Source of the DNA: Candidatus Eiseniibacteriota bacterium
Lineage (GTDB): Bacteria; Eisenbacteria; RBG-16-71-46; SZUA-252
Assembly (NCBI GenBank): GCA_043779525.1
Contig: JAYWED010000031.1
Span: 4,240-68,239, forward strand
Reading direction: 5' to 3'
Length of the DNA stretch: 64,000 nt
A program made the position numbers and the translations under genes. Positions 16,159-27,416 of the stretch are shown here, piece by piece (position 1 is the first letter of the stretch; the number at the start of each line of letters is the position of its first letter). The notes below the pieces were generated by a model. The model made no database searches, had not been told where the DNA came from, and saw only the letters and a program-made list of their open reading frames with translations.

Positions 16159-16227
16159 TCGGACGTTGTCTTCATTATTGGCACCAGTATTGCAATGACT
16201 TAGCGGCGAGGGCTCGCTGGAAGGCAA

Positions 16228-17894: not shown

Positions 17895-19172
17895 TCAGTG
17901 CGCGACGTTCAGCTCGCGCTCCATCACCCCACCGCTCGGAATCGCGCCGGACGGGAAATCCTCCTCGATCAGGTTCGCCGACACGCGGCAGTTCCTTCCG
18001 ATGATCGCCGCCTCCGGAATGCGCGTCTCTTTGCCAACGATCGTGATCCCGGAGCTCAGGTGCTCGGGACAGGATCGGTTGGGCGTCAGGTCGTCCCCGA
18101 AGCCCACGCGCGCCCGTGGCCCCACGTGGACGCGCTTGTCCAGGATCACGCGGTCGAGCGCGGCCGAGGGGCCGACCCACGCCTCCCCCATCACGATCGA
18201 GTCCCTCACCGTGGCACCCTCCTCGACCACGGCGCCCGGAAAGAGGATCGAGCGCTCCACGACCCCGTTCACGATCGAGCCGTGCGTCAGGATCGAGGAG
18301 CGGACCAGGGCGCGCGGCCCGATCCGCGCGGGGGGAAATTCAGTGCTCGGCGTGAAGACCGGCCAGCGGGGATCCTCGAGCGGAAACGACGGGTGCGGTT
18401 TCAGGAGGTCGAGGTTCGCTCGATAGTAGGAATCGAGGGTGCCGATGTCCTGCCAGTACCCCTGGTGGCGGTAGCCCCGAACCCGGCCGCGCCGCACCAG
18501 CTCCGGGAGGATGTTCCTGCCGAAGTCGTGGGCCGTGTCGCGCTCCGCGTCCTGGCGCAGCGCGGCGTGGAGCGCCGCGGTGCGGAAGACATAGACGCCC
18601 ATCGAGATGGTCCCGGACGGGGGCGACGCGGGCTTCTCCAGGAAGCCGCGAACGCGATCGTCACCGTCTAAGTCCACGACACCGAACCCGCGCGCTTCCT
18701 CGCGAGGCACCTCGGTGACCGCGATCGTGGCGTCGGCTCCATACACCACGTGCTCCTCGATCATGGGGCGATAGTCCATGCGGTACACGTGGTCGCCGGA
18801 CAGGATCAGGACGTGCTCCGCCTCCCGCTCCTCGATGCGGGTCCAGTTCTGGTGGATGGCGTCCGCGGTTCCGCGATACCAGTCCGTCTCGGCCCAGCCC
18901 TGGAAGGGCTGCAGAAGCTCCACGCCCCCGCGCTTTCGATCCAGGTCCCAGGGGCGGCCGATGCCGATGTGGTCCCGAAGAGAGAGCGGGCGGTATTGCG
19001 TGAGGATTCCGACGTCGAAGATCCCGGAATTCACGCAGTTCGAGAGCGAGAAGTCGATGATCCGGTACTTTCCGCCGAACGGCACCGCGGGCTTCGCGCG
19101 CTTTTCCGAGAGAATGCAGAGGCGGCTGCCGAGGCCGCCCGCGAGGATCATGGCGTAGGAAACGAAGCTCAT
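17895..19172 (-). CDS. glgC: Glucose-1-phosphate adenylyltransferase (catalytic-type)
   Basis: Start at MSFVSYAMILAGGLGSRL (canonical LAGGxGxRL); PAVPFGGKYRIIDFSLSNCVNSGI; C-terminal left-handed beta-helix. ORF-track 5' extension (584 aa) is non-coding-like Arg/Gly junk. Confidence 0.85.
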   Translation of the reverse strand: MSFVSYAMILAGGLGSRLCILSEKRAKPAVPFGGKYRIIDFSLSNCVNSGIFDVGILTQYRPLSLRDHIGIGRPWDLDRKRGGVELLQPFQGWAETDWYRGTADAIHQNWTRIEEREAEHVLILSGDHVYRMDYRPMIEEHVVYGADATIAVTEVPREEARGFGVVDLDGDDRVRGFLEKPASPPSGTISMGVYVFRTAALHAALRQDAERDTAHDFGRNILPELVRRGRVRGYRHQGYWQDIGTLDSYYRANLDLLKPHPSFPLEDPRWPVFTPSTEFPPARIGPRALVRSSILTHGSIVNGVVERSILFPGAVVEEGATVRDSIVMGEAWVGPSAALDRVILDKRVHVGPRARVGFGDDLTPNRSCPEHLSSGITIVGKETRIPEAAIIGRNCRVSANLIEEDFPSGAIPSGGVMERELNVAH

Positions 19173-20341
19173 GGGACGCTCGGTTCCATGCGGGAGCCCG
19201 CCGGGACCACCGATCCCTTGCCGACGACGCAGATTCCCTGTTTGGAGCGCCCTTCGGACGCGCCCGCGCTCCCCACGCTGGCGTCCGGACCGATCACGAC
19301 GCGCTTGTCCACGATCGCGCGGGAAAGGCGCGCCCCGGGCGCGATCCGCGCGTCGTGCATCACGATCGAGTCCTCGACCACGGCGCCCGCGCCGACGTGC
19401 ACCCCAGGGAAGAGCACCGACCGCCTTACCTCGCCTTCCACTTTCGCTCCGTGCGAGATGAGACTCTGGCTCACCACCGCTTCCGCTCCCACGACGGCGG
19501 GAGCGCGGTCCTCGCTCGGTGTGTAGATCAGCCAGTCGGGATCGTAGAGATTGAGCGGAGGGAACGGGCGGACAAGGTCCATGTTCGATTCGTAGTAGGA
19601 ATGGAGCGTTCCGATGTCGCGCCAGTAGCCCCGGTGGGCATAGGCCCACACCGGTTCGCCCTCCGCGATCATGGGCCGGATCACATCCCCTACCAGATCC
19701 GGGCCGCTCCCGGGCCGGCGCAGGCGCTCCAGGAGGTCCCGCGCGCGGAAGGCGTAGATGGCAGCGGATACCACGCGGCCGCCCGTGCGCTTCGGCTTCT
19801 CCTCGAGCGCGGTGACGCGCCCGTCCGGGTCGGCCTGCACGAACCCATAGCGCTCGGGCTCTTCGCTCGGGGCCTGGGTCGTGACCAGCGTGAGCGCCGC
19901 GTCGCGCTCCTCGTGGAAGCGGATCAGCTCGGCATAGTCCATCTTGTAGACCAAGTCCCCGGAGAGGACGAGGATGTGCCGCGCCTGCGCGTCCTCGATG
20001 ACGTTTCGGTTCTGGAGGAGCGCGTCGGCGGTGCCCCGGTACCAGTTGGTCTCGCGCTGGCGCACGTAGGGCTGGAGAAGCTGAATGCCGCCGTCACGGC
20101 GGTCCAGGTCCCAGGCGCGGCCGATGCCGATGTGCCCGTGCAGGGAGAGCGGCGCGTACTGGGTCAGGATTCCGACCCGCGCGAGGCCGGAGTGCACGCA
20201 GTTGGAGAGGGTGAAATCGATGACCCGGTACTTGCCGCCGTACGGGAGCGCCGAGGCGGTGCGGATGCGTCCCAGAGCGCGCAGAGCCTCGCTTCGTCCC
20301 CCCGCGAGCACGAGCGTAAGCACGGGGGGGATCGCGGTCAT
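19169..20341 (-). CDS. glgD: Second glucose-1-phosphate adenylyltransferase paralogue with degenerate N-terminal motif (GlgD-like regulatory subunit)
   Basis: VLAGGRSEALRALG... instead of GGxGxRL; otherwise GlgC-like (PYGGKYRVIDFTLSNCVHSGL, LbH C-terminus); ATGA overlap with glgC. Confidence 0.65.
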   Translation of the reverse strand: MTAIPPVLTLVLAGGRSEALRALGRIRTASALPYGGKYRVIDFTLSNCVHSGLARVGILTQYAPLSLHGHIGIGRAWDLDRRDGGIQLLQPYVRQRETNWYRGTADALLQNRNVIEDAQARHILVLSGDLVYKMDYAELIRFHEERDAALTLVTTQAPSEEPERYGFVQADPDGRVTALEEKPKRTGGRVVSAAIYAFRARDLLERLRRPGSGPDLVGDVIRPMIAEGEPVWAYAHRGYWRDIGTLHSYYESNMDLVRPFPPLNLYDPDWLIYTPSEDRAPAVVGAEAVVSQSLISHGAKVEGEVRRSVLFPGVHVGAGAVVEDSIVMHDARIAPGARLSRAIVDKRVVIGPDASVGSAGASEGRSKQGICVVGKGSVVPAGSRMEPSVP

Positions 20342-20362
20342 GCCGCGATCCGGGGCGCCGCG

Positions 20363-21394
20363 CTAGAAGCGGTAGGAGCCCGAGACGCGATGGCTCGCGT
20401 CGAGGTCGCGATGATCCAGATACGCGTAGTCGAGTCCGAACTTCCGGTACCGAAGCCCCGCGCCGGCGGTGAAGTTCTGCGCCTCGAAGCCTGCGCGCAG
20501 AGCGAGCCGGCGGTCGAACCAGTATTCGAGCCCGGGATGGAATTCGAAAGTGACGCCGCCGAGGTGCGCCTGGCTCGAGAGCCGCTCGTCGGAGAACCCG
20601 ACCTGCACGTCCAGGGCCGCCGTGACCAGGTGCCGCCGATCCCGGAACGAGCGCGTCTTGGCCGCGCCGAGGCGCAGGGACGGTGCGATGAACTCGCCCG
20701 TCCCGGTGTTCCAGAGGATCCGGGTCGTCGTCGCGTCACGTAGCGTCGCCCCCAGGGAGAACCCGCTGCGCCCGACATAGAGCAGCCCGAGGTCGATCCC
20801 GAAGCCGTTCGAGCGGAGACTGTCGCCGAGCCACTGCCGGATGTACTTGAAGTTTCCGCCGAGCGAGAGACCGGGGCGGACGTCGCGAGCATAGCTGAAA
20901 AGCAGCGCCACGTCGTTATCGCTGTCGAATACGAACCGGCTCTCGTCCACGTTGAGGAGATCGCCGGGATAATCGAATTTTCCGTTCCCGTTGATATCCG
21001 TCTGGAGCTGGAGGCCGCGCGTGTCCGGGATGTCGCTCACCCCGAGACGGACGAGCGAGACCGAAAGCGCCTGGCGCGGTTTCCCCGGGGCCGAGACCGG
21101 CATGACGTAGGAGAGGAAGTCGTACTGCACGATGGAGCCGAACTGCTCCGCGTGCATCGCGGTGACCTGACGCTCGGTCAGCGTTGCGAGCCCGGCGGGA
21201 TTCCAGTAGGCCGCGGTCCCGTCGTCGGCGAGCCCCACGAAGGCGCTCCCCATCCCCAGAGCCCGGGCGCCGACTCCGATGCGAAGGAATTCACCCGCGT
21301 AGCGGGTGGCCCACGCGGAATCCGGCCGGCACGGCCCGAGGGCCGCGATCAGCGCGAGAAGGAGACAGGTTTTGAAAACGGGAACGAGCCGCAT
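20363..21394 (-). CDS. Outer-membrane beta-barrel protein, PorV/UPF0164/FadL-like
   Basis: Signal peptide; N-terminal GARALGMGSAFVGLADDGTAAYWNPAGLA (typical of PorV/UPF0164 family); alternating beta-strand pattern, C-terminal aromatic ...SGSYRF. Confidence 0.5.
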   Translation of the reverse strand: MRLVPVFKTCLLLALIAALGPCRPDSAWATRYAGEFLRIGVGARALGMGSAFVGLADDGTAAYWNPAGLATLTERQVTAMHAEQFGSIVQYDFLSYVMPVSAPGKPRQALSVSLVRLGVSDIPDTRGLQLQTDINGNGKFDYPGDLLNVDESRFVFDSDNDVALLFSYARDVRPGLSLGGNFKYIRQWLGDSLRSNGFGIDLGLLYVGRSGFSLGATLRDATTTRILWNTGTGEFIAPSLRLGAAKTRSFRDRRHLVTAALDVQVGFSDERLSSQAHLGGVTFEFHPGLEYWFDRRLALRAGFEAQNFTAGAGLRYRKFGLDYAYLDHRDLDASHRVSGSYRF

Positions 21395-21497
21395 CAGGCG
21401 CCGCCGGCAAGGGAAACCATCGCTTGGATCCGGACAAGGGATTGTACCCCACCCCGGATCGCGGGGTTCCTTGGTCGAGACCCCCGGCTTCCCGGGG

Positions 21498-21938
21498 TCA
21501 ATGGGCGGCAGACCGCCGTTTCGCGGGCGCCGCGTCGTCGGCGGGTCGCGACGTCGACACCCGCCGCAGAGACCGCCACACCACGTATTGCTCCACCAAC
21601 TCGCGGTCCTCCTCGGCCATGTCGGTGAAGCAGCAGGCCAATTCGAACTTCCGCTTCTGGCGCGGGACCTCGATCTCCACGGCCCGCACGATCACGCCCT
21701 GGCACTGAACCACCCGCCCGCGGCGGAGCCGCCTCCCGAAGGGTGGCAGGAGCAGCGTGAGGGCCACACGGGTCAGCGGCGCAAGCGCCGTCTTGCTCTG
21801 AAACTGGAGACCTCCCGCGGAAAGATTGATGCTCTCGGTGGTGAGCACCGAAGCGTCCTCGCCCACTCCCGTGATCTGCATCGCGAGCTTGGCGATGACG
21901 CGTGGCGCCCGGCGTCGTTCCTTCGTCGACTTGGACAT
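21498..21938 (-). CDS. PilZ-domain (c-di-GMP-binding) protein
   Basis: RRAPRVI (RxxxR) ... TTESINLSAGGLQFQ (D/NxSxGG) PilZ signature; start taken at MSKSTKERRRAPRV. Confidence 0.55.
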   Translation of the reverse strand: MSKSTKERRRAPRVIAKLAMQITGVGEDASVLTTESINLSAGGLQFQSKTALAPLTRVALTLLLPPFGRRLRRGRVVQCQGVIVRAVEIEVPRQKRKFELACCFTDMAEEDRELVEQYVVWRSLRRVSTSRPADDAAPAKRRSAAH

Positions 21939-21975
21939 GACCCTCACCCTCCCCGCGGCCTTGCGGCCGCTCCGT

Positions 21976-23949
21976 TCAGCGACGCCTTCCCTGACGGCCA
22001 CCGCGCGCCTTCTTATTCGCGCGCTCCGGCCGCCTGGACCGTCGCGCCGCGCGCGTCCTGAGACCCAGCTCGATTTCCCTTCGCTCCAGATCCGCGCGGG
22101 CGATCACGACGTCCACGGGATCTCCCAATCCGAACCGGTGCCGCGTGCTCTTCGATCGAAACGAAAACCCGTGCTCCGCGAGCGTGAGCGACGGATCGCC
22201 GATAGCCCGCTTCGGCAAGAACCCCTCGATATTCAGGCCCTCGAGAAAGACGAACAGCCCGCCGGGCGTGAGCCCAACGATCGTGCCGCGCGCCTCTTCG
22301 CCCAGCCGCTGCAAGGCGAAGCGGACCGCCTTCATCTTGACGACCGCGCGCTCGGCATCGTCCGCAGCCATCTCGGTGGCGGAGATGTGCGCCGCCGTGC
22401 CCGCGCTCATCCATCCGCCCGCGAACGCCCAAGGATCGCCGGCCGGTTTGGAGCCGTCGAGAAGAAAGCGTTTCACGATTCGATGATTGGCGAGGTCTGC
22501 ATAGCGGCGGATCGGAGACGTGAAGTGCGCGTACCCGCGCATTCCCAGCCCGAAGTGGCCGACGTCCACGAGATCGTAACGCGCCTTCTCCATCGCCCGC
22601 AGGAGATAGAGATTCACGATGCGGTCGCGCGTCGTCTTTCCCGACGTCGCCCACCCACGGAGCTGCTTCGCCTCCGTCACGAACGGCACGGCCCCCGAGC
22701 GTCCCAGGTACCGGGCCGCTTCGAAGAACGCCCGCAGCTTATCATACCGGGGCCGCTCGTGAACCCTATAGAAAAACGGGAGCTCTCGCGCGAGCGCGCG
22801 CCCTCCCACGATGCGGTTCGCGAGCAGCATGAATTCCTCGACCAGCTCGTGCGTGGGAAGTCGTTTCGTTTCCTGAAACGCCTCCGGCTCACCGCGCGCG
22901 TCCAGACGCGGGCGCAGCTCGGGAAGGTCGAGATCGAACCCGCCCTCCTCGAGACGTCGACGCCGCAACCCGCGCGCGATGCGATCGAGCCCGGCCAGCG
23001 CCGCTGGCACACCCGAGCCCCCCTCGCGCGCGAGACGCGCGGCCTCCGGATAGGAGAGCGAGGCCCCGCTGCGCACGACCCCGCTCACGATCCGGCTCTT
23101 GCCGACCCCGCCTTCCTCGTCCAACTCGACCAGAACGCTCAGTGTGAGCCGGTCCTTTCCGTCGACGAGGCTACAGAGCCCCCCGGAGAGCGACTCGGGG
23201 AGCATGGGGTACGTGGCATCGGCCAGGTACGCGCTGTTCCCCCGCGCCTGCGCCTCGAGGTCGAGCGCTCCCCCGGGCGGGACGTAATGGCTCACGTCCG
23301 CAATGTGGATCCCGATTTCGTGGATGCCCCCGGCGGAGCGGTGGATGGAGAGCGCGTCGTCGTGGTCCTTCGCGTCCTCCGGGTCGATCGTGACCGTGAG
23401 GTCGCTGCGGAAGTCGGTCCTGCCGTGGACCGCGTGGTCCACGGAGGACTCCGCGAAGGACGCCGCATCCGCGAGCGCGTCGGGCCCGAATTCGGTATGG
23501 AGACCCTCCTCCAACGCGACGACGTAACTGTCCTCGCGGGGGTCGTCGACACCGAGCACCGCGATGACCCGGCCCCGGAGCGGCTCGGCGGGCGTGCGGT
23601 CCAGGCGCACCACGGCGCGCCGGCCCTGCGGGACGGTGGCCCTTCCCTCCAGCGTCAGGAGGATCTCGCGCGGGTACTCCGGACGCTCAGGCCGGAGCAG
23701 CGTCTGCCGGCCCCGTGCCTCGAGGCGGCCGACGATTCCCGACGGGGAGCGCTCGAGCACTTCCACGATCTCGTGAGCGTCCCCCTCACGTCTGGACTCG
23801 AGATAGCTCGCCACCACGAGATCACCGTGGAGCGCCGTCCCCATCGCGAAGGGCGGGATGAAAAGATCGTCCTCGCCATCGCCCACCCGGACGAACCCAT
23901 AGCCGAAGCGGGTTCGCTCGAGGCGGCCGACGCGAGGACGTGTCGTCAC
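21976..23949 (-). CDS. rnr: Ribonuclease R (RNB family 3'-5' exoribonuclease with OB/CSD and S1 domains)
   Basis: TIDPEDAKDHDDALS, IHIADVSHYV, GHFGLG..YAHFTSPIRRYADLANHR RNB motifs; C-terminal basic tail. Confidence 0.9.
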   Translation of the reverse strand: MTTRPRVGRLERTRFGYGFVRVGDGEDDLFIPPFAMGTALHGDLVVASYLESRREGDAHEIVEVLERSPSGIVGRLEARGRQTLLRPERPEYPREILLTLEGRATVPQGRRAVVRLDRTPAEPLRGRVIAVLGVDDPREDSYVVALEEGLHTEFGPDALADAASFAESSVDHAVHGRTDFRSDLTVTIDPEDAKDHDDALSIHRSAGGIHEIGIHIADVSHYVPPGGALDLEAQARGNSAYLADATYPMLPESLSGGLCSLVDGKDRLTLSVLVELDEEGGVGKSRIVSGVVRSGASLSYPEAARLAREGGSGVPAALAGLDRIARGLRRRRLEEGGFDLDLPELRPRLDARGEPEAFQETKRLPTHELVEEFMLLANRIVGGRALARELPFFYRVHERPRYDKLRAFFEAARYLGRSGAVPFVTEAKQLRGWATSGKTTRDRIVNLYLLRAMEKARYDLVDVGHFGLGMRGYAHFTSPIRRYADLANHRIVKRFLLDGSKPAGDPWAFAGGWMSAGTAAHISATEMAADDAERAVVKMKAVRFALQRLGEEARGTIVGLTPGGLFVFLEGLNIEGFLPKRAIGDPSLTLAEHGFSFRSKSTRHRFGLGDPVDVVIARADLERREIELGLRTRAARRSRRPERANKKARGGRQGRRR

Positions 23950-23985
23950 GGGCGGTGCATTGTGGGCGGAGCTTGGAATCTGGGG

Positions 23986-24081
23986 CTAGCGGTTCTTCTT
24001 CTTGTGGCGATCGCGGCGGAGACGCTTCTTCCGCTTGTGAGTCGCGATCTTCTTACGCTTGCGCTTTTTTCCGCTTCCCAT
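23986..24081 (-). CDS. Small ORF (31 aa) encoding a bS22-like (DUF1713/AURKAIP1-type) highly basic ribosomal protein; not in ORF track
   Basis: AAGGAG SD 6 nt upstream of ATG; product MGSGKKRKRKKIATHKRKKRLRRDRHKKKNR resembles mycobacterial/Bacteroidetes bS22 (MGS..KKRRKRM.KKKHRKLL.R.R...). Confidence 0.5.
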   Translation of the reverse strand: MGSGKKRKRKKIATHKRKKRLRRDRHKKKNR

Positions 24082-24108
24082 CGCTCTCCTTCGGGGGCGG
24101 GCCCGGGC

Positions 24109-24384
24109 TCAGCCGCGCACCGCCCCTTTGAGTTCGTTGGACGCCTTGAAGACCGGCACCAGCTTGGCGGGCACCATGACCTCCGCCCCGCTGCGCGGAT
24201 TGCGCGCCTTGCGCGCCTTGCGCTCCCGAACCTTGAACGTGCCGAATCCACGGATCTCGATGTGCTTCCCCTCGCTCAGCGCCCGGGAAATCGCGTTCAG
24301 CAGCTGATCCACGATGGTCGCCGTTTCGCTCTTGGAGATTCGAGTCTTGCCCGAGATCTCGTCTACCAGATCTGCTTTCGTCAC
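24109..24384 (-). CDS. HU/IHF family DNA-binding protein
   Basis: MTKADLVDEIS...ETATIVDQLLNAISRALSEGKHIEIRGFGTFKVRERKARKARNPRSGAEVMVPA... (bacterial histone-like fold, beta-arm RNPRTG motif). Confidence 0.85.
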   Translation of the reverse strand: MTKADLVDEISGKTRISKSETATIVDQLLNAISRALSEGKHIEIRGFGTFKVRERKARKARNPRSGAEVMVPAKLVPVFKASNELKGAVRG

Positions 24385-24459
24385 GGGCTCCTCCTTGGCG
24401 GCATCCTACCGCCGGGTCGTCGAGGGCGGCACTCTAGCACCGGGCCGCGCACCCGTCAA

Positions 24460-25344
24460 TTAACGCAGCCGGTACTCGAGTTGAGGACCGGACTGGCTCA
24501 GGCCGGGCACCAGGCGCATCTTGTCCTGGAACAGGTCGAGGACCGACATCCGGCGGCGCTCCTTGCGAACGACGACGGGCCGCCCCTGGATCTTGCCCAA
24601 CTCTCCCGCCAGCCTGATCGCGTCGTCCAGATCTCCGAGCCGGTCCACGAATCCGTACTCCAGAGCCTGGCTCCCCGAAAAGATCCTGCCGTCCGCATAC
24701 GGCAGGATGTCGCTCTTTTCCATGCCGCGTCCATCCGCGATGGCGTTCACGAACTGCTCGTAGACGTTCGAAAGAACTCCCTGGAGAAGTGCCTTCTCGT
24801 CGGGGGTCATCGGGCGGGAGAGCGATCCGATGTCCTTGTACTTTCCGGTCTTCACCACCTCGAAACGAACTCCGACCTTCTTGAACAGCTCCTCGGTGTT
24901 CGGAAAGCTCAGGATCACGCCGATGCTGCCGGTGAGCGTGCCCGGATTGGATACGATCGAATCCGCGGCGCACGCGACGTAGTAGGCGCCGGACGCCGCG
25001 ACGCTTCCCATGGAGGCCACGACCGGCTTGTCCTCTTTCCGTACCCGCAGCACCGCGTCGTAGATTTCCTGGGACGCGGCGACGCCGCCCCCGGGGCTGT
25101 CGAGCCTCAAGACCACCGCCCGGATGCTCGAATCGCGGCGCATGTGCTCGAGCTGATCGACGATTCCTTCGGAGGATTCGATATCGCCGACGATCTCGAC
25201 CAACCCCACCCGCTTGTTCAGCGAGCCGAGCGCCAGATCATCGTGATTCAGGGAGAGGTTCACGACCAGGAACGCGAGGCTGACCGTCACGAGGGTGCCT
25301 ACAAAGAGGACGATACAGCCCACCAGCCAGCGCTTGACGGCCAT
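24460..25344 (-). CDS. sppA: Signal peptide peptidase SppA (36K type, ClpP/crotonase fold)
   Basis: N-terminal TM; IRAVVLRLDSPGGGVAASQEIY...ASMGSVAASGAYYVACAAD...KDIGS motifs; start taken at MAVKRWLVGCIVLF. Confidence 0.85.
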   Translation of the reverse strand: MAVKRWLVGCIVLFVGTLVTVSLAFLVVNLSLNHDDLALGSLNKRVGLVEIVGDIESSEGIVDQLEHMRRDSSIRAVVLRLDSPGGGVAASQEIYDAVLRVRKEDKPVVASMGSVAASGAYYVACAADSIVSNPGTLTGSIGVILSFPNTEELFKKVGVRFEVVKTGKYKDIGSLSRPMTPDEKALLQGVLSNVYEQFVNAIADGRGMEKSDILPYADGRIFSGSQALEYGFVDRLGDLDDAIRLAGELGKIQGRPVVVRKERRRMSVLDLFQDKMRLVPGLSQSGPQLEYRLR

Positions 25345-25789
25345 TCGGTCTCGTTTGGTCCCGCTCTTGGTCCAACAACTCGAGGAGGTTGCCGAATACG
25401 CTAGCAAAGCGCCGGGGGGAATTCAATCAACGCGGTGTACGTAAATTGCGAACGGGGCGTCCGGTTGCCCGAACGCCCCGTGCCGGCCCAGCGGCCGAAT
25501 AGTCTGTTCCCCACCTGTGCCGCGCGCCTAGTGCCAGTGAAACTGCGTCGTCTCGTCGAGGGGATCAGCTCAGGACCAGGCGATTCTCGCGGGCACCGCA
25601 GGGAACATATGGCGCAGTGCGTATGTGCACCCTTACCAAAGCAATCGGTGTACCGAGGAGGAGCGCGGGGACACAAAGCGGCGGGCAAATAATGGTGAAA
25701 ATATGGGGCGCAGTAAACATCACTATCGCAATCATTTATTGGATACTTCGAATGTGTTTTCTACCTTCCTTGAACACCCTTCCGGGGCG

Positions 25790-25833
25790 GGTCGAGCGGT
25801 AACCCGCCGAGGGGCCGGCGCGGGGCCCTACAT
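25790..25833 (-). terminator. Two consecutive GC-rich hairpins just 3' of gpmI (candidate intrinsic terminator without U-tract)
   Basis: Minus strand: GGGCCccgcgccGGCCC ... GGCGGGTtaccgctcgACCCGCC directly after the gpmI stop. Confidence 0.3.
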
Positions 25834-25847
25834 CTGAGCCGGATGGC

Positions 25848-27416
25848 TCAAGGTTGGGGGGCAATTGCCCCAGCCGGCTCCGGAGCGAGGAGGGATTTGC
25901 CGGTCATCTCCGCCGGCGGGCGGATTCCCATGATGGAGAGGAGCGTGGGCGCCACGTCGGCCAGAATGCCGTTCCCGATCCGGTAGCGGCGAGGTCCCAC
26001 ACAGAGGATCGGAACCGGGTGCATCGTGTGGGCGGTGTGAGGCCCCCCGGTCTCGTAGTCGATCATCTGGTCGGCGTTCCCGTGGTCGGCGGTTACCAGA
26101 ACCGTTCCCGAGCGGCTCCGGACCACCTCGATCAGGCGCCCCAGGCACCGGTCCACCGTCTCCACCGCCTTCACGGCCGCCTCGATCACCCCCGTGTGAC
26201 CCACCATGTCGGCGTTGGCGTAGTTGAGGACGAAGAAGCCGTACGTTCCGTCGGAGAGCCTGCGGACGGCTTCGTCCGTCAGCTCGCGCGCGCTCATTTC
26301 CGGCTTCAGGTCGTAGGTGGCCACCTTGGAGGAAGGCACGAGCACCCGGTCCTCACCGGGGAACGGCGTCTCCTGGCTGCCGTTGAAGAAGTACGTGACG
26401 TGCGCGTACTTCTCGGTCTCGGCCAATCGAATCTGCCGGACCCCGTCGCGGCTCACGGCCTCGCCCAGGGTCCCACGCAGCGGATCGTCGGCGAAGAGGA
26501 CCGGGTAGGGGAACGTCTCGTCGTAGGAGGTCATGCAAACGTAGTCCAGGTCCAGGGGCCAGCCCGGCCGCTCAAAGGCGTCGAACGCCGGCTCCGCCAG
26601 CGCGCGCGTGATCTGACGCATCCGGTCGGGGCGGAAATTGAACGCGAGCACTGTGTCTCCGCGCGCGATCAGGGCCGGCTCCCCGAAGCCGGACACCACG
26701 GTCGGCTTGACGAACTCATCGTTCTCGCCTCGCGCGTAGGCCTTCTCGAGCGCCTCGACCGCACTCCCGGCCTTGAACCCCTCGCCCTGAACCAGGGTGC
26801 GGTAGCCCAGCTCGGTCCGATCCCAACGCTTGTCCCGGTCCATCGCGTAGTATCGTCCGCCGACCGACGCGATGCGGCCCCGGCCGATCTCGCGAAGGAC
26901 GGCTTCCGTGGCCTCGAGGTCCCCCCGGGCCGAGCGCGGCGGCACGTCGCGGCCGTCGGTGATGGCGTGCACGAAGATGCGCTCCACGCCCGCGGACTTC
27001 GCGATGCGGAGGAGCGCATGGAGATGGCGGGTGTGGCTGTGGACGCCGCCCGCGGAGTGAAGCCCGACGAAGTGGAGCGCGGCATTCCGCTTCCGGGTCC
27101 GCGCCAGAGCGTCGACGAGAGCCTGATTCCGGGAGAGCGTTCCTTCCGCGATCGACCGGTCGATGCGCGTCAGGTCCTGGTAGACGATCCTCCCCGCCCC
27201 GAGGCTCAGGTGCCCGACCTCGGAGTTTCCCATTTGCCCGGCGGGAAGCCCCACGGATTCGCCCCACGTGACCAGCGTCGCGTGCGGACACTCGCGCGTC
27301 AGCGCGTCCATGACCGGAGTGCGCGCCATCAGCACGGCGTTCCCTTCGGCACGGGGGTTCAGCGCCCAGCCGTCGAGAATGATGAGGCCCGTGAGCGACG
27401 ATGATGACGTGGACAT
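25848..27416 (-). CDS. gpmI: 2,3-bisphosphoglycerate-independent phosphoglycerate mutase
   Basis: LIILDGWALNP...MGNSEVGHLSLGAGRIVYQD...LHFVGLHSAGGVHSH...VTADHGNAD full-length iPGM. Confidence 0.95.
   Translation of the reverse strand: MSTSSSSLTGLIILDGWALNPRAEGNAVLMARTPVMDALTRECPHATLVTWGESVGLPAGQMGNSEVGHLSLGAGRIVYQDLTRIDRSIAEGTLSRNQALVDALARTRKRNAALHFVGLHSAGGVHSHTRHLHALLRIAKSAGVERIFVHAITDGRDVPPRSARGDLEATEAVLREIGRGRIASVGGRYYAMDRDKRWDRTELGYRTLVQGEGFKAGSAVEALEKAYARGENDEFVKPTVVSGFGEPALIARGDTVLAFNFRPDRMRQITRALAEPAFDAFERPGWPLDLDYVCMTSYDETFPYPVLFADDPLRGTLGEAVSRDGVRQIRLAETEKYAHVTYFFNGSQETPFPGEDRVLVPSSKVATYDLKPEMSARELTDEAVRRLSDGTYGFFVLNYANADMVGHTGVIEAAVKAVETVDRCLGRLIEVVRSRSGTVLVTADHGNADQMIDYETGGPHTAHTMHPVPILCVGPRRYRIGNGILADVAPTLLSIMGIRPPAEMTGKSLLAPEPAGAIAPQP

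Follow-up and report, generated by a model that had tools for sequence, protein, structure and literature searches.

A 31-codon gene between the HU and RNase R genes of an Eisenbacteria genome very probably encodes ribosomal protein bS22

Between the genes for a nucleoid protein of the HU/IHF family and RNase R (rnr) in an Eisenbacteria genome lies an open reading frame of only 31 codons, and the question is whether this ORF is a gene and, if so, what its product is. The genome has a GC content of 67%, and several longer ORFs overlap the frame in other frames. Our analysis leads us to conclude with high confidence, from sequence comparison, that the ORF truly codes for a protein, namely ribosomal protein bS22, belonging to the subfamily that was first seen in the ribosomes of Bacteroidota and Borrelia.

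The original prediction had placed a bS22-like gene between rnr and HU, at positions 23986–24081 of the window, by which we mean the whole 64-kb stretch of DNA that was analysed. The coordinates proved exact, and the strand, which had been left unstated, is minus (Table 1); translation of the plus strand over the same interval gives an unrelated peptide. Both flanking genes are those that had been named, as shown by the Pfam and TIGR02063 matches to RNase R and the Bac_DNA_binding match to HU, and the exact HU sequence is named in metagenome-assembled genomes (MAGs) of Candidatus Eisenbacteria (Eiseniibacteriota). The AAGGAG sequence reported before the ATG is present, but its spacing, described as optimal, is at the short end of the usual range. 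As to the identity of the gene, the prediction is borne out by a full-length match to bS22 chains modelled by cryo-EM, by purifying selection and by synteny.

Table 1. Features of the bS22 locus, in window coordinates
Feature	Position	Strand	Details
bS22 coding sequence	23986..24081	minus	31 codons plus TAG stop; product MGSGKKRKRKKIATHKRKKRLRRDRHKKKNR; ATG start
Shine-Dalgarno sequence AAGGAG of the bS22 ORF	24086..24091	minus	4-nt spacer (AGCG) to the ATG at 24081-24079
HU/IHF-family nucleoid protein gene, 91 aa	24109..24384	minus	Pfam PF00216 Bac_DNA_binding, 1.6e-31
RNase R gene (rnr)	21976..23949	minus	RNB 2e-93; OB_RNB, CSD2 and S1 domains; TIGR02063 1e-144
Sigma-70-like promoter candidate, TTGACG-17-TAGAGT plus upstream TG	24431..24459	minus	5' of HU; consensus match only

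Comparison with proteins of known structure identified the family of the product. A phmmer search of all PDB chain sequences returned exactly three matches, each full-length and ungapped: bS22 of F. johnsoniae (7JIL chain 5; E 5.1e-7, residues 1–29, 23/29 identical), chain 10 of the P. gingivalis 70S structure 9I5V (E 2.1e-6, 22/29 identical), and bS22 of Borrelia burgdorferi (8FMW chain V; E 7.6e-5, 19/28 identical). Entry 9I5V is confirmed as the P. gingivalis ribosome (PMC12123416). A family profile of 22 sequences, searched against the PDB, reached the same three chains only, with E values from 4.7e-15 to 7.7e-13. Since Lys and Arg make up 61% of the peptide (19/31), we controlled for composition by shuffling: in 1e5 composition-preserving shuffles the mean identity was about 7 and the maximum 17, and none reached the observed values of 23, 22 and 19.

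The layout of the peptide is also that of the family. The motif M-[PG]-x-G-[KR]-K is found near the N-terminus, THKRKK occupies residues 14–19 and RHKK residues 25–28; the length of 31 residues falls within the range of about 28–34, and over half of the residues are Lys or Arg. M1, G4, K6 and K11, which lie outside the pattern used for the genome scan described below, are invariant in the family alignment. AlphaFold2, run without an alignment, predicted one helix over residues 4–29 (pLDDT 92), which is consistent with the published bS22 helix and not diagnostic of it. Foldseek found no PDB match for the single-helix model; a lone helix of 31 residues is not searchable by fold.

The bS22 proteins of F. 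johnsoniae (Fjoh_1533, 7JIL) and P. gingivalis (AAQ66340.1, 9I5V/9I5X) are 30 residues long, compared with 31 here, and align with the window peptide without gaps, sharing G4, THKRKK, RHKK(K) and a basic C-terminal tail. The N-terminus is MGSG here and MPSG or MPNG in those two proteins; position 10 is K here and H in both, and the tail here reads RRD...KKNR. The gene in the window has a strong Shine-Dalgarno sequence, whereas Bacteroidia are generally without such sequences (PMC7797042). The B. burgdorferi gene (bb0822) has a GUG start, in contrast to the ATG here. The genome annotation lacked its product, which came to light only as cryo-EM density and escaped mass spectrometry; the same study predicted further unannotated cases of bS22 (PMC10618245).

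The relationship to actinobacterial bS22 is more distant. The M. smegmatis protein (e.g. 5O5J) resembles the window peptide in size, in its MGS start and extreme basicity, and in having K16 and LRR in register; the sequence similarity, however, is marginal. There are 12 identities to mycobacterial bS22 over about 29–31 residues (BLASTP E 0.47), and 787 of 1e5 in-register shuffles reached the observed identity (p about 0.008). The family profile found neither actinobacterial bS22 nor mS38 at E≤10. Because the tie to mycobacterial bS22 is marginal, we file the gene under the Bacteroidota/spirochaete-type subfamily. The case for equating it with actinobacterial bS22, mS38 and eL41 comes from structural superpositions in the literature (PMC7797042, PMC10618245, PMC12123416), by which actinobacterial bS22 and mS38 occupy the same ribosomal site (PMC7797042, PMC10618245).

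The claim of a match to DUF1713 itself, which had also been made, is weak: Pfam PF08213 scored the peptide at 16.5 bits, below its cutoff of 23 (E 0.008), and the NCBIfam model NF047430 (ribo_bS22, cutoff 34 bits) gave no match. As controls, M. smegmatis bS22 passed both models (46.2 bits with PF08213 and 62.6 bits with NF047430), and the solved bS22 proteins of F. johnsoniae, P. gingivalis and Borrelia failed both. PF08213 and NF047430 cover only the actinobacterial and mitochondrial branch. Since solved bS22 chains fail the same models, the sub-threshold score reflects a gap in the models and is not counter-evidence. The absence of a significant DUF1713 hit had been proposed as grounds for rejecting the identification; this is not a valid test, because PF08213 also misses the solved bS22 of the Bacteroidota/spirochaete type.

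Because the Pfam and NCBIfam models miss the subfamily, its members are left as “hypothetical protein” or are called with wrong starts. Gene callers do find the ORF: 181 blocks of public assemblies, two NCBI assemblies among them, carry the exact window peptide as a called gene. The exact-sequence protein collection contains neither this peptide nor the well-annotated M. smegmatis bS22, and the absence of the latter makes that of the former uninformative on annotation. A 31-residue Bacteroidota homologue is labelled “hypothetical protein” or “Uncharacterized protein” in NCBI, UniProt and IMG. The search of a representative protein library gave 28 matches (P0016–P0043), all within mis-called longer ORFs of 34–124 aa. 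These matches bear on wrongly called starts and stops, not on taxonomy. Some of them are extended at the N-terminus, by as many as 93 residues, and others run on into 3' sequence; in P0017 the first 16 residues are partly duplicated. In sum, gene callers often find members of the family, at times with wrong ends, and the name given is “hypothetical protein” where it could be checked.

The distribution of the family was surveyed with its core pattern, THKRKK and RHKK separated by five codons, written as degenerate DNA (about 45 bits). This pattern occurs once in the window, compared with 0.00 occurrences expected. Scanning one genome per GTDB species yielded at least 120 loci, and 119 pattern-bearing loci (L011–L130) were analysed. 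In every one of the 119 loci listed, the match lies inside an ORF with a start codon (M/V/L) exactly 13 codons upstream and a stop codon 0–5 codons past RHKK, and the products are 29–34 aa long. The register of THKRKK and RHKK is likewise identical in 119/119, an invariance that the search pattern itself partly imposes. Among the loci listed, bS22 of the Bacteroidota type is found in Eisenbacteria, Zixibacteria, Marinimicrobia, WOR-3, Omnitrophota and other lineages. Three loci (L070, L078 and L092) encode bS22 identical to peptides of Bacteroidota loci on MAG contigs labelled Lachnospiraceae, Alphaproteobacteria and Streptomyces griseus, and the label Verrucomicrobiae is attached to an HU protein of the Eisenbacteria type. 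These labels probably stem from mis-binning or contamination.

The scan also revealed that HU is the usual neighbor of bS22. Of the 119 loci listed, 101 have an HU-family gene upstream of bS22 and on its strand, in taxa that include Bacteroidota, Ignavibacteria, Chlorobiaceae, Zixibacteria, Marinimicrobia and WOR-3. It directly adjoins bS22, at 17–187 nt, in 57 of the listed loci; in 44 others the gap is about 530–1270 nt, and both of the two gaps tested with Pfam contain a gene for a membrane-anchored TPR protein. HU is absent upstream in nine listed loci (Omnitrophota, PVC, spirochaetes, Rhodothermales and two other Bacteroidota), and in nine further loci the upstream sequence is too short to judge. 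Most of the listed Bacteroidota loci, a sample that does not include those of F. johnsoniae and P. gingivalis, resemble the window in having HU upstream on the same strand; the sampled spirochaete loci (L074, L101 and L110) are without HU upstream, unlike the window. Our literature search found no mention of the HU–bS22 linkage.

The arrangement in the window would suit joint expression of the two genes. The HU stop codon lies only 27 nt before the bS22 ATG, which makes HU the likely first gene of the transcript. A promoter consensus scan of positions 23700–24700 found one site (0.1 expected), and no terminator-like hairpin was found in the same interval, which spans HU, bS22 and the start of rnr. 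From the promoter candidate and the hairpin scan, co-transcription of HU and bS22 is plausible. bS22 would then rely on its own Shine-Dalgarno sequence for translation, within a transcript whose 5' end lies upstream of HU and which perhaps runs into rnr, and a transcript shared with HU could provide the high level of expression that one expects for a ribosomal protein. A bolder proposal, which we consider rather unlikely, is that HU and bS22 are an ancient, probably co-transcribed two-gene unit that may couple nucleoid protein and ribosome functionally. If this were true, the coupling would consist in a co-regulated stoichiometry or in a second nucleic-acid role of the polycationic peptide, and bS22 would be ancestral to a large part of the bacterial tree, having been omitted by the curated models and by the standard sets of ribosomal proteins.

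The linkage to HU is unusually deep, being kept in those 101 loci over many phyla, and it might be taken to mean that the product is a basic nucleic-acid-binding peptide that acts with HU on the nucleoid, or a free polycationic, antimicrobial-like peptide, instead of or besides a ribosomal protein. Labile binding to the ribosome would agree with this explanation, since F. johnsoniae bS22 was seen in 70S complexes and was absent from isolated 30S subunits (PMC13000457). However, the direct evidence on homologues is all ribosomal, with none for DNA binding, and linkage to a highly expressed gene is more simply explained by shared high expression. We therefore regard a nucleoid or free-peptide function as very unlikely and favor the identification as a ribosomal protein.

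Selection on the frame was assessed in loci chosen independently of the peptide. The loci with the exact peptide were not used because they had been picked for having an identical peptide; instead, we used 80 metagenome loci gathered by RNase R similarity alone. In 43 of the 80, the ORF immediately precedes rnr on the same strand. These 43 include every locus with upstream sequence whose RNase R is at least 68% identical, and also a second clade in which RNase R is about 42–47% and HU about 71% identical; to judge by cluster names, this clade belongs to Eisenbacteria as well. All 43 loci keep the 31-codon frame and have GGAG within 20 nt upstream of the ATG. The HU gene, or its end at the locus edge, lies upstream in all of them except L192, a locus that begins 22 nt before the bS22 ORF. 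The order rnr-bS22-hup, which the original prediction had expected in relatives, is thus kept in loci picked without reference to the ORF. This synteny stands within Eisenbacteria; rnr is a lineage-specific neighbor, found next to bS22 in none of the non-Eisenbacteria GTDB loci listed, and the deep partner is HU.

The 43 loci contain 33 unique bS22 sequences. Across the 31 codons, 28 third positions are variable, compared with 11 first and 6 second positions, and mean pS is 0.54 against a mean pN of 0.07. The changes outside third positions are synonymous Arg, Ser or Leu switches or fall on a few variable residues. In an alignment of the loci with the exact peptide, the intergenic DNA on both sides of the ORF is scrambled and the frame is intact. 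The bS22 frame is under strong purifying selection.

The position of the ORF suggests another possibility, that it is a regulatory uORF or leader peptide of rnr, for which the act of translation matters and not the peptide. It ends 36 nt before the RNase R start and has its own Shine-Dalgarno sequence, no terminator-like site was found in 23700–24700, and the adjacency to rnr is kept across the two Eisenbacteria clades. Yet pN is far below pS, so the peptide is not free to vary as that of a leader would be. Moreover, the peptide is about 70–95% conserved in Bacteroidota, Ignavibacteria, Zixibacteria, Marinimicrobia, WOR-3 and spirochaetes without an adjacent rnr, and homologues of 79% identity are physically present in ribosomes (PMC7797042). 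These results make a leader peptide highly improbable as an account of the ORF; as a bS22 gene, it may have an added coupling effect on rnr translation.

Spurious ORFs abound in high-GC genomes, a 31-codon open frame is unremarkable by itself and longer ORFs overlap this one (e.g. 23946–24251 minus and 23940–24131 plus), but the idea of a chance ORF without a product, in a spacer rich in Lys and Arg codons, retains almost no probability, being effectively refuted by an intact frame amid freely diverging intergenic DNA, by the codon-position pattern and by a shuffle test in which identity to the solved chains exceeds what composition gives, with the core pattern expected 0.00 times in the window. 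The two overlapping ORFs were themselves rejected as genes, as the substitution pattern fits the bS22 frame; the one at 23946–24251 would also share DNA, in another frame, with the HU gene, which is well supported.

The wider surroundings of the gene are conserved among close relatives. In ten of ten loci with the exact bS22 peptide (L001–L010), the gene order of window positions ~19169–27416 on the minus strand is kept: a CSD cold-shock protein, iPGM, an S49/SppA-like peptidase, HU, bS22, RNase R, a PilZ-domain protein, a gene of ~343 aa and two NTP_transferase/hexapeptide genes. The ~343-aa gene, located 3' of the PilZ-domain gene, has no Pfam match. With the genes for a cold-shock protein and RNase R so close to bS22, a common stress or cold regulon is conceivable.

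Studies of homologues indicate what bS22 would do in this organism. In F. johnsoniae, P. gingivalis and Borrelia, bS22 sits between helices h44 and h45 of 16S rRNA (PMC7797042, PMC12123416, PMC10618245), and the Borrelia pocket is formed by h2, h27, h44 and h45 (PMC10618245). The basic C-terminus touches H68/H70 of 23S rRNA and makes an extra intersubunit bridge beside the decoding centre (PMC7797042, PMC10618245, PMC12123416). By homology, the 31-residue peptide would form a single α-helix in the 16S pocket between h44 and h45, close to the decoding centre and with h2 and h27 as neighbors. The C-terminus of the peptide, rich in Lys and Arg, would reach H68/H70 of 23S rRNA, adding an intersubunit contact and stabilising h44. 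For Eisenbacteria, we infer both ribosome binding and these helix contacts from the homologues; no 16S rRNA is present in the 64-kb window.

bS22 lies next to the decoding centre and to the aminoglycoside site of h44. Loss of bS22 in M. smegmatis leads to higher kanamycin susceptibility through an altered h44 pocket (PMC10081302). Sequestration of the anti-Shine-Dalgarno sequence in F. johnsoniae does not require bS22 (PMC13000457). This dispensability fits the presence of bS22 in a lineage that plainly uses Shine-Dalgarno sequences.

bS22 is already a known protein, and its Bacteroidota-type subfamily has been known since 2020. In the literature consulted it still counts as a protein of Mycobacteria and Bacteroidia (PMC13000457), and Borrelia joined the list of carriers in 2023. 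Our study adds a strongly selected bS22 of the Bacteroidota type from Eisenbacteria, an uncultured phylum, as well as the gap in model coverage and a conserved linkage to HU that extends deep into the FCB (Fibrobacteres-Chlorobi-Bacteroidetes) group. The gain is a better annotation model and a fuller inventory of ribosomal proteins for FCB genomes; we regard it as a sound but ordinary annotation catch, with no new kind of biology.

A separate observation concerns the gap of roughly 470 nt between the genes for phosphoglycerate mutase (iPGM, ending at 25848) and the SppA-like peptidase. Inside this gap, a block of about 210 nt (window ~25444–25654, minus strand) is almost invariant in 23 related loci, and its flanks are scrambled. 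The predicted fold of the block (MFE −96 kcal/mol, z −4.8) has three elements: an irregular hairpin of 104 nt, a second hairpin that is short, and a GC hairpin that resembles a terminator and is followed by a T-rich tail. Rfam gave sub-threshold scores only for this block, namely 30.1 bits for 6S/SsrS RNA (threshold 46.4) and 25.4 bits for BjrC68 (threshold 39). It looks like a candidate for an undescribed small RNA or leader.

A perfect sigma-54 consensus, TGGCACCAGTATTGCA, occurs in the window at 16179–16194 on the plus strand. Just upstream of the candidate RNA, an invariant box, CGGTACACCGATTGCT (25640–25655, minus strand), has the −24/−12 spacing of sigma-54 promoters with two mismatches. 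Since sigma-54 matches with two mismatches are not enriched in the window (10 against 14 expected), only conservation lends weight to this box. Its version in L194 matches every specified position of the searched sigma-54 consensus.
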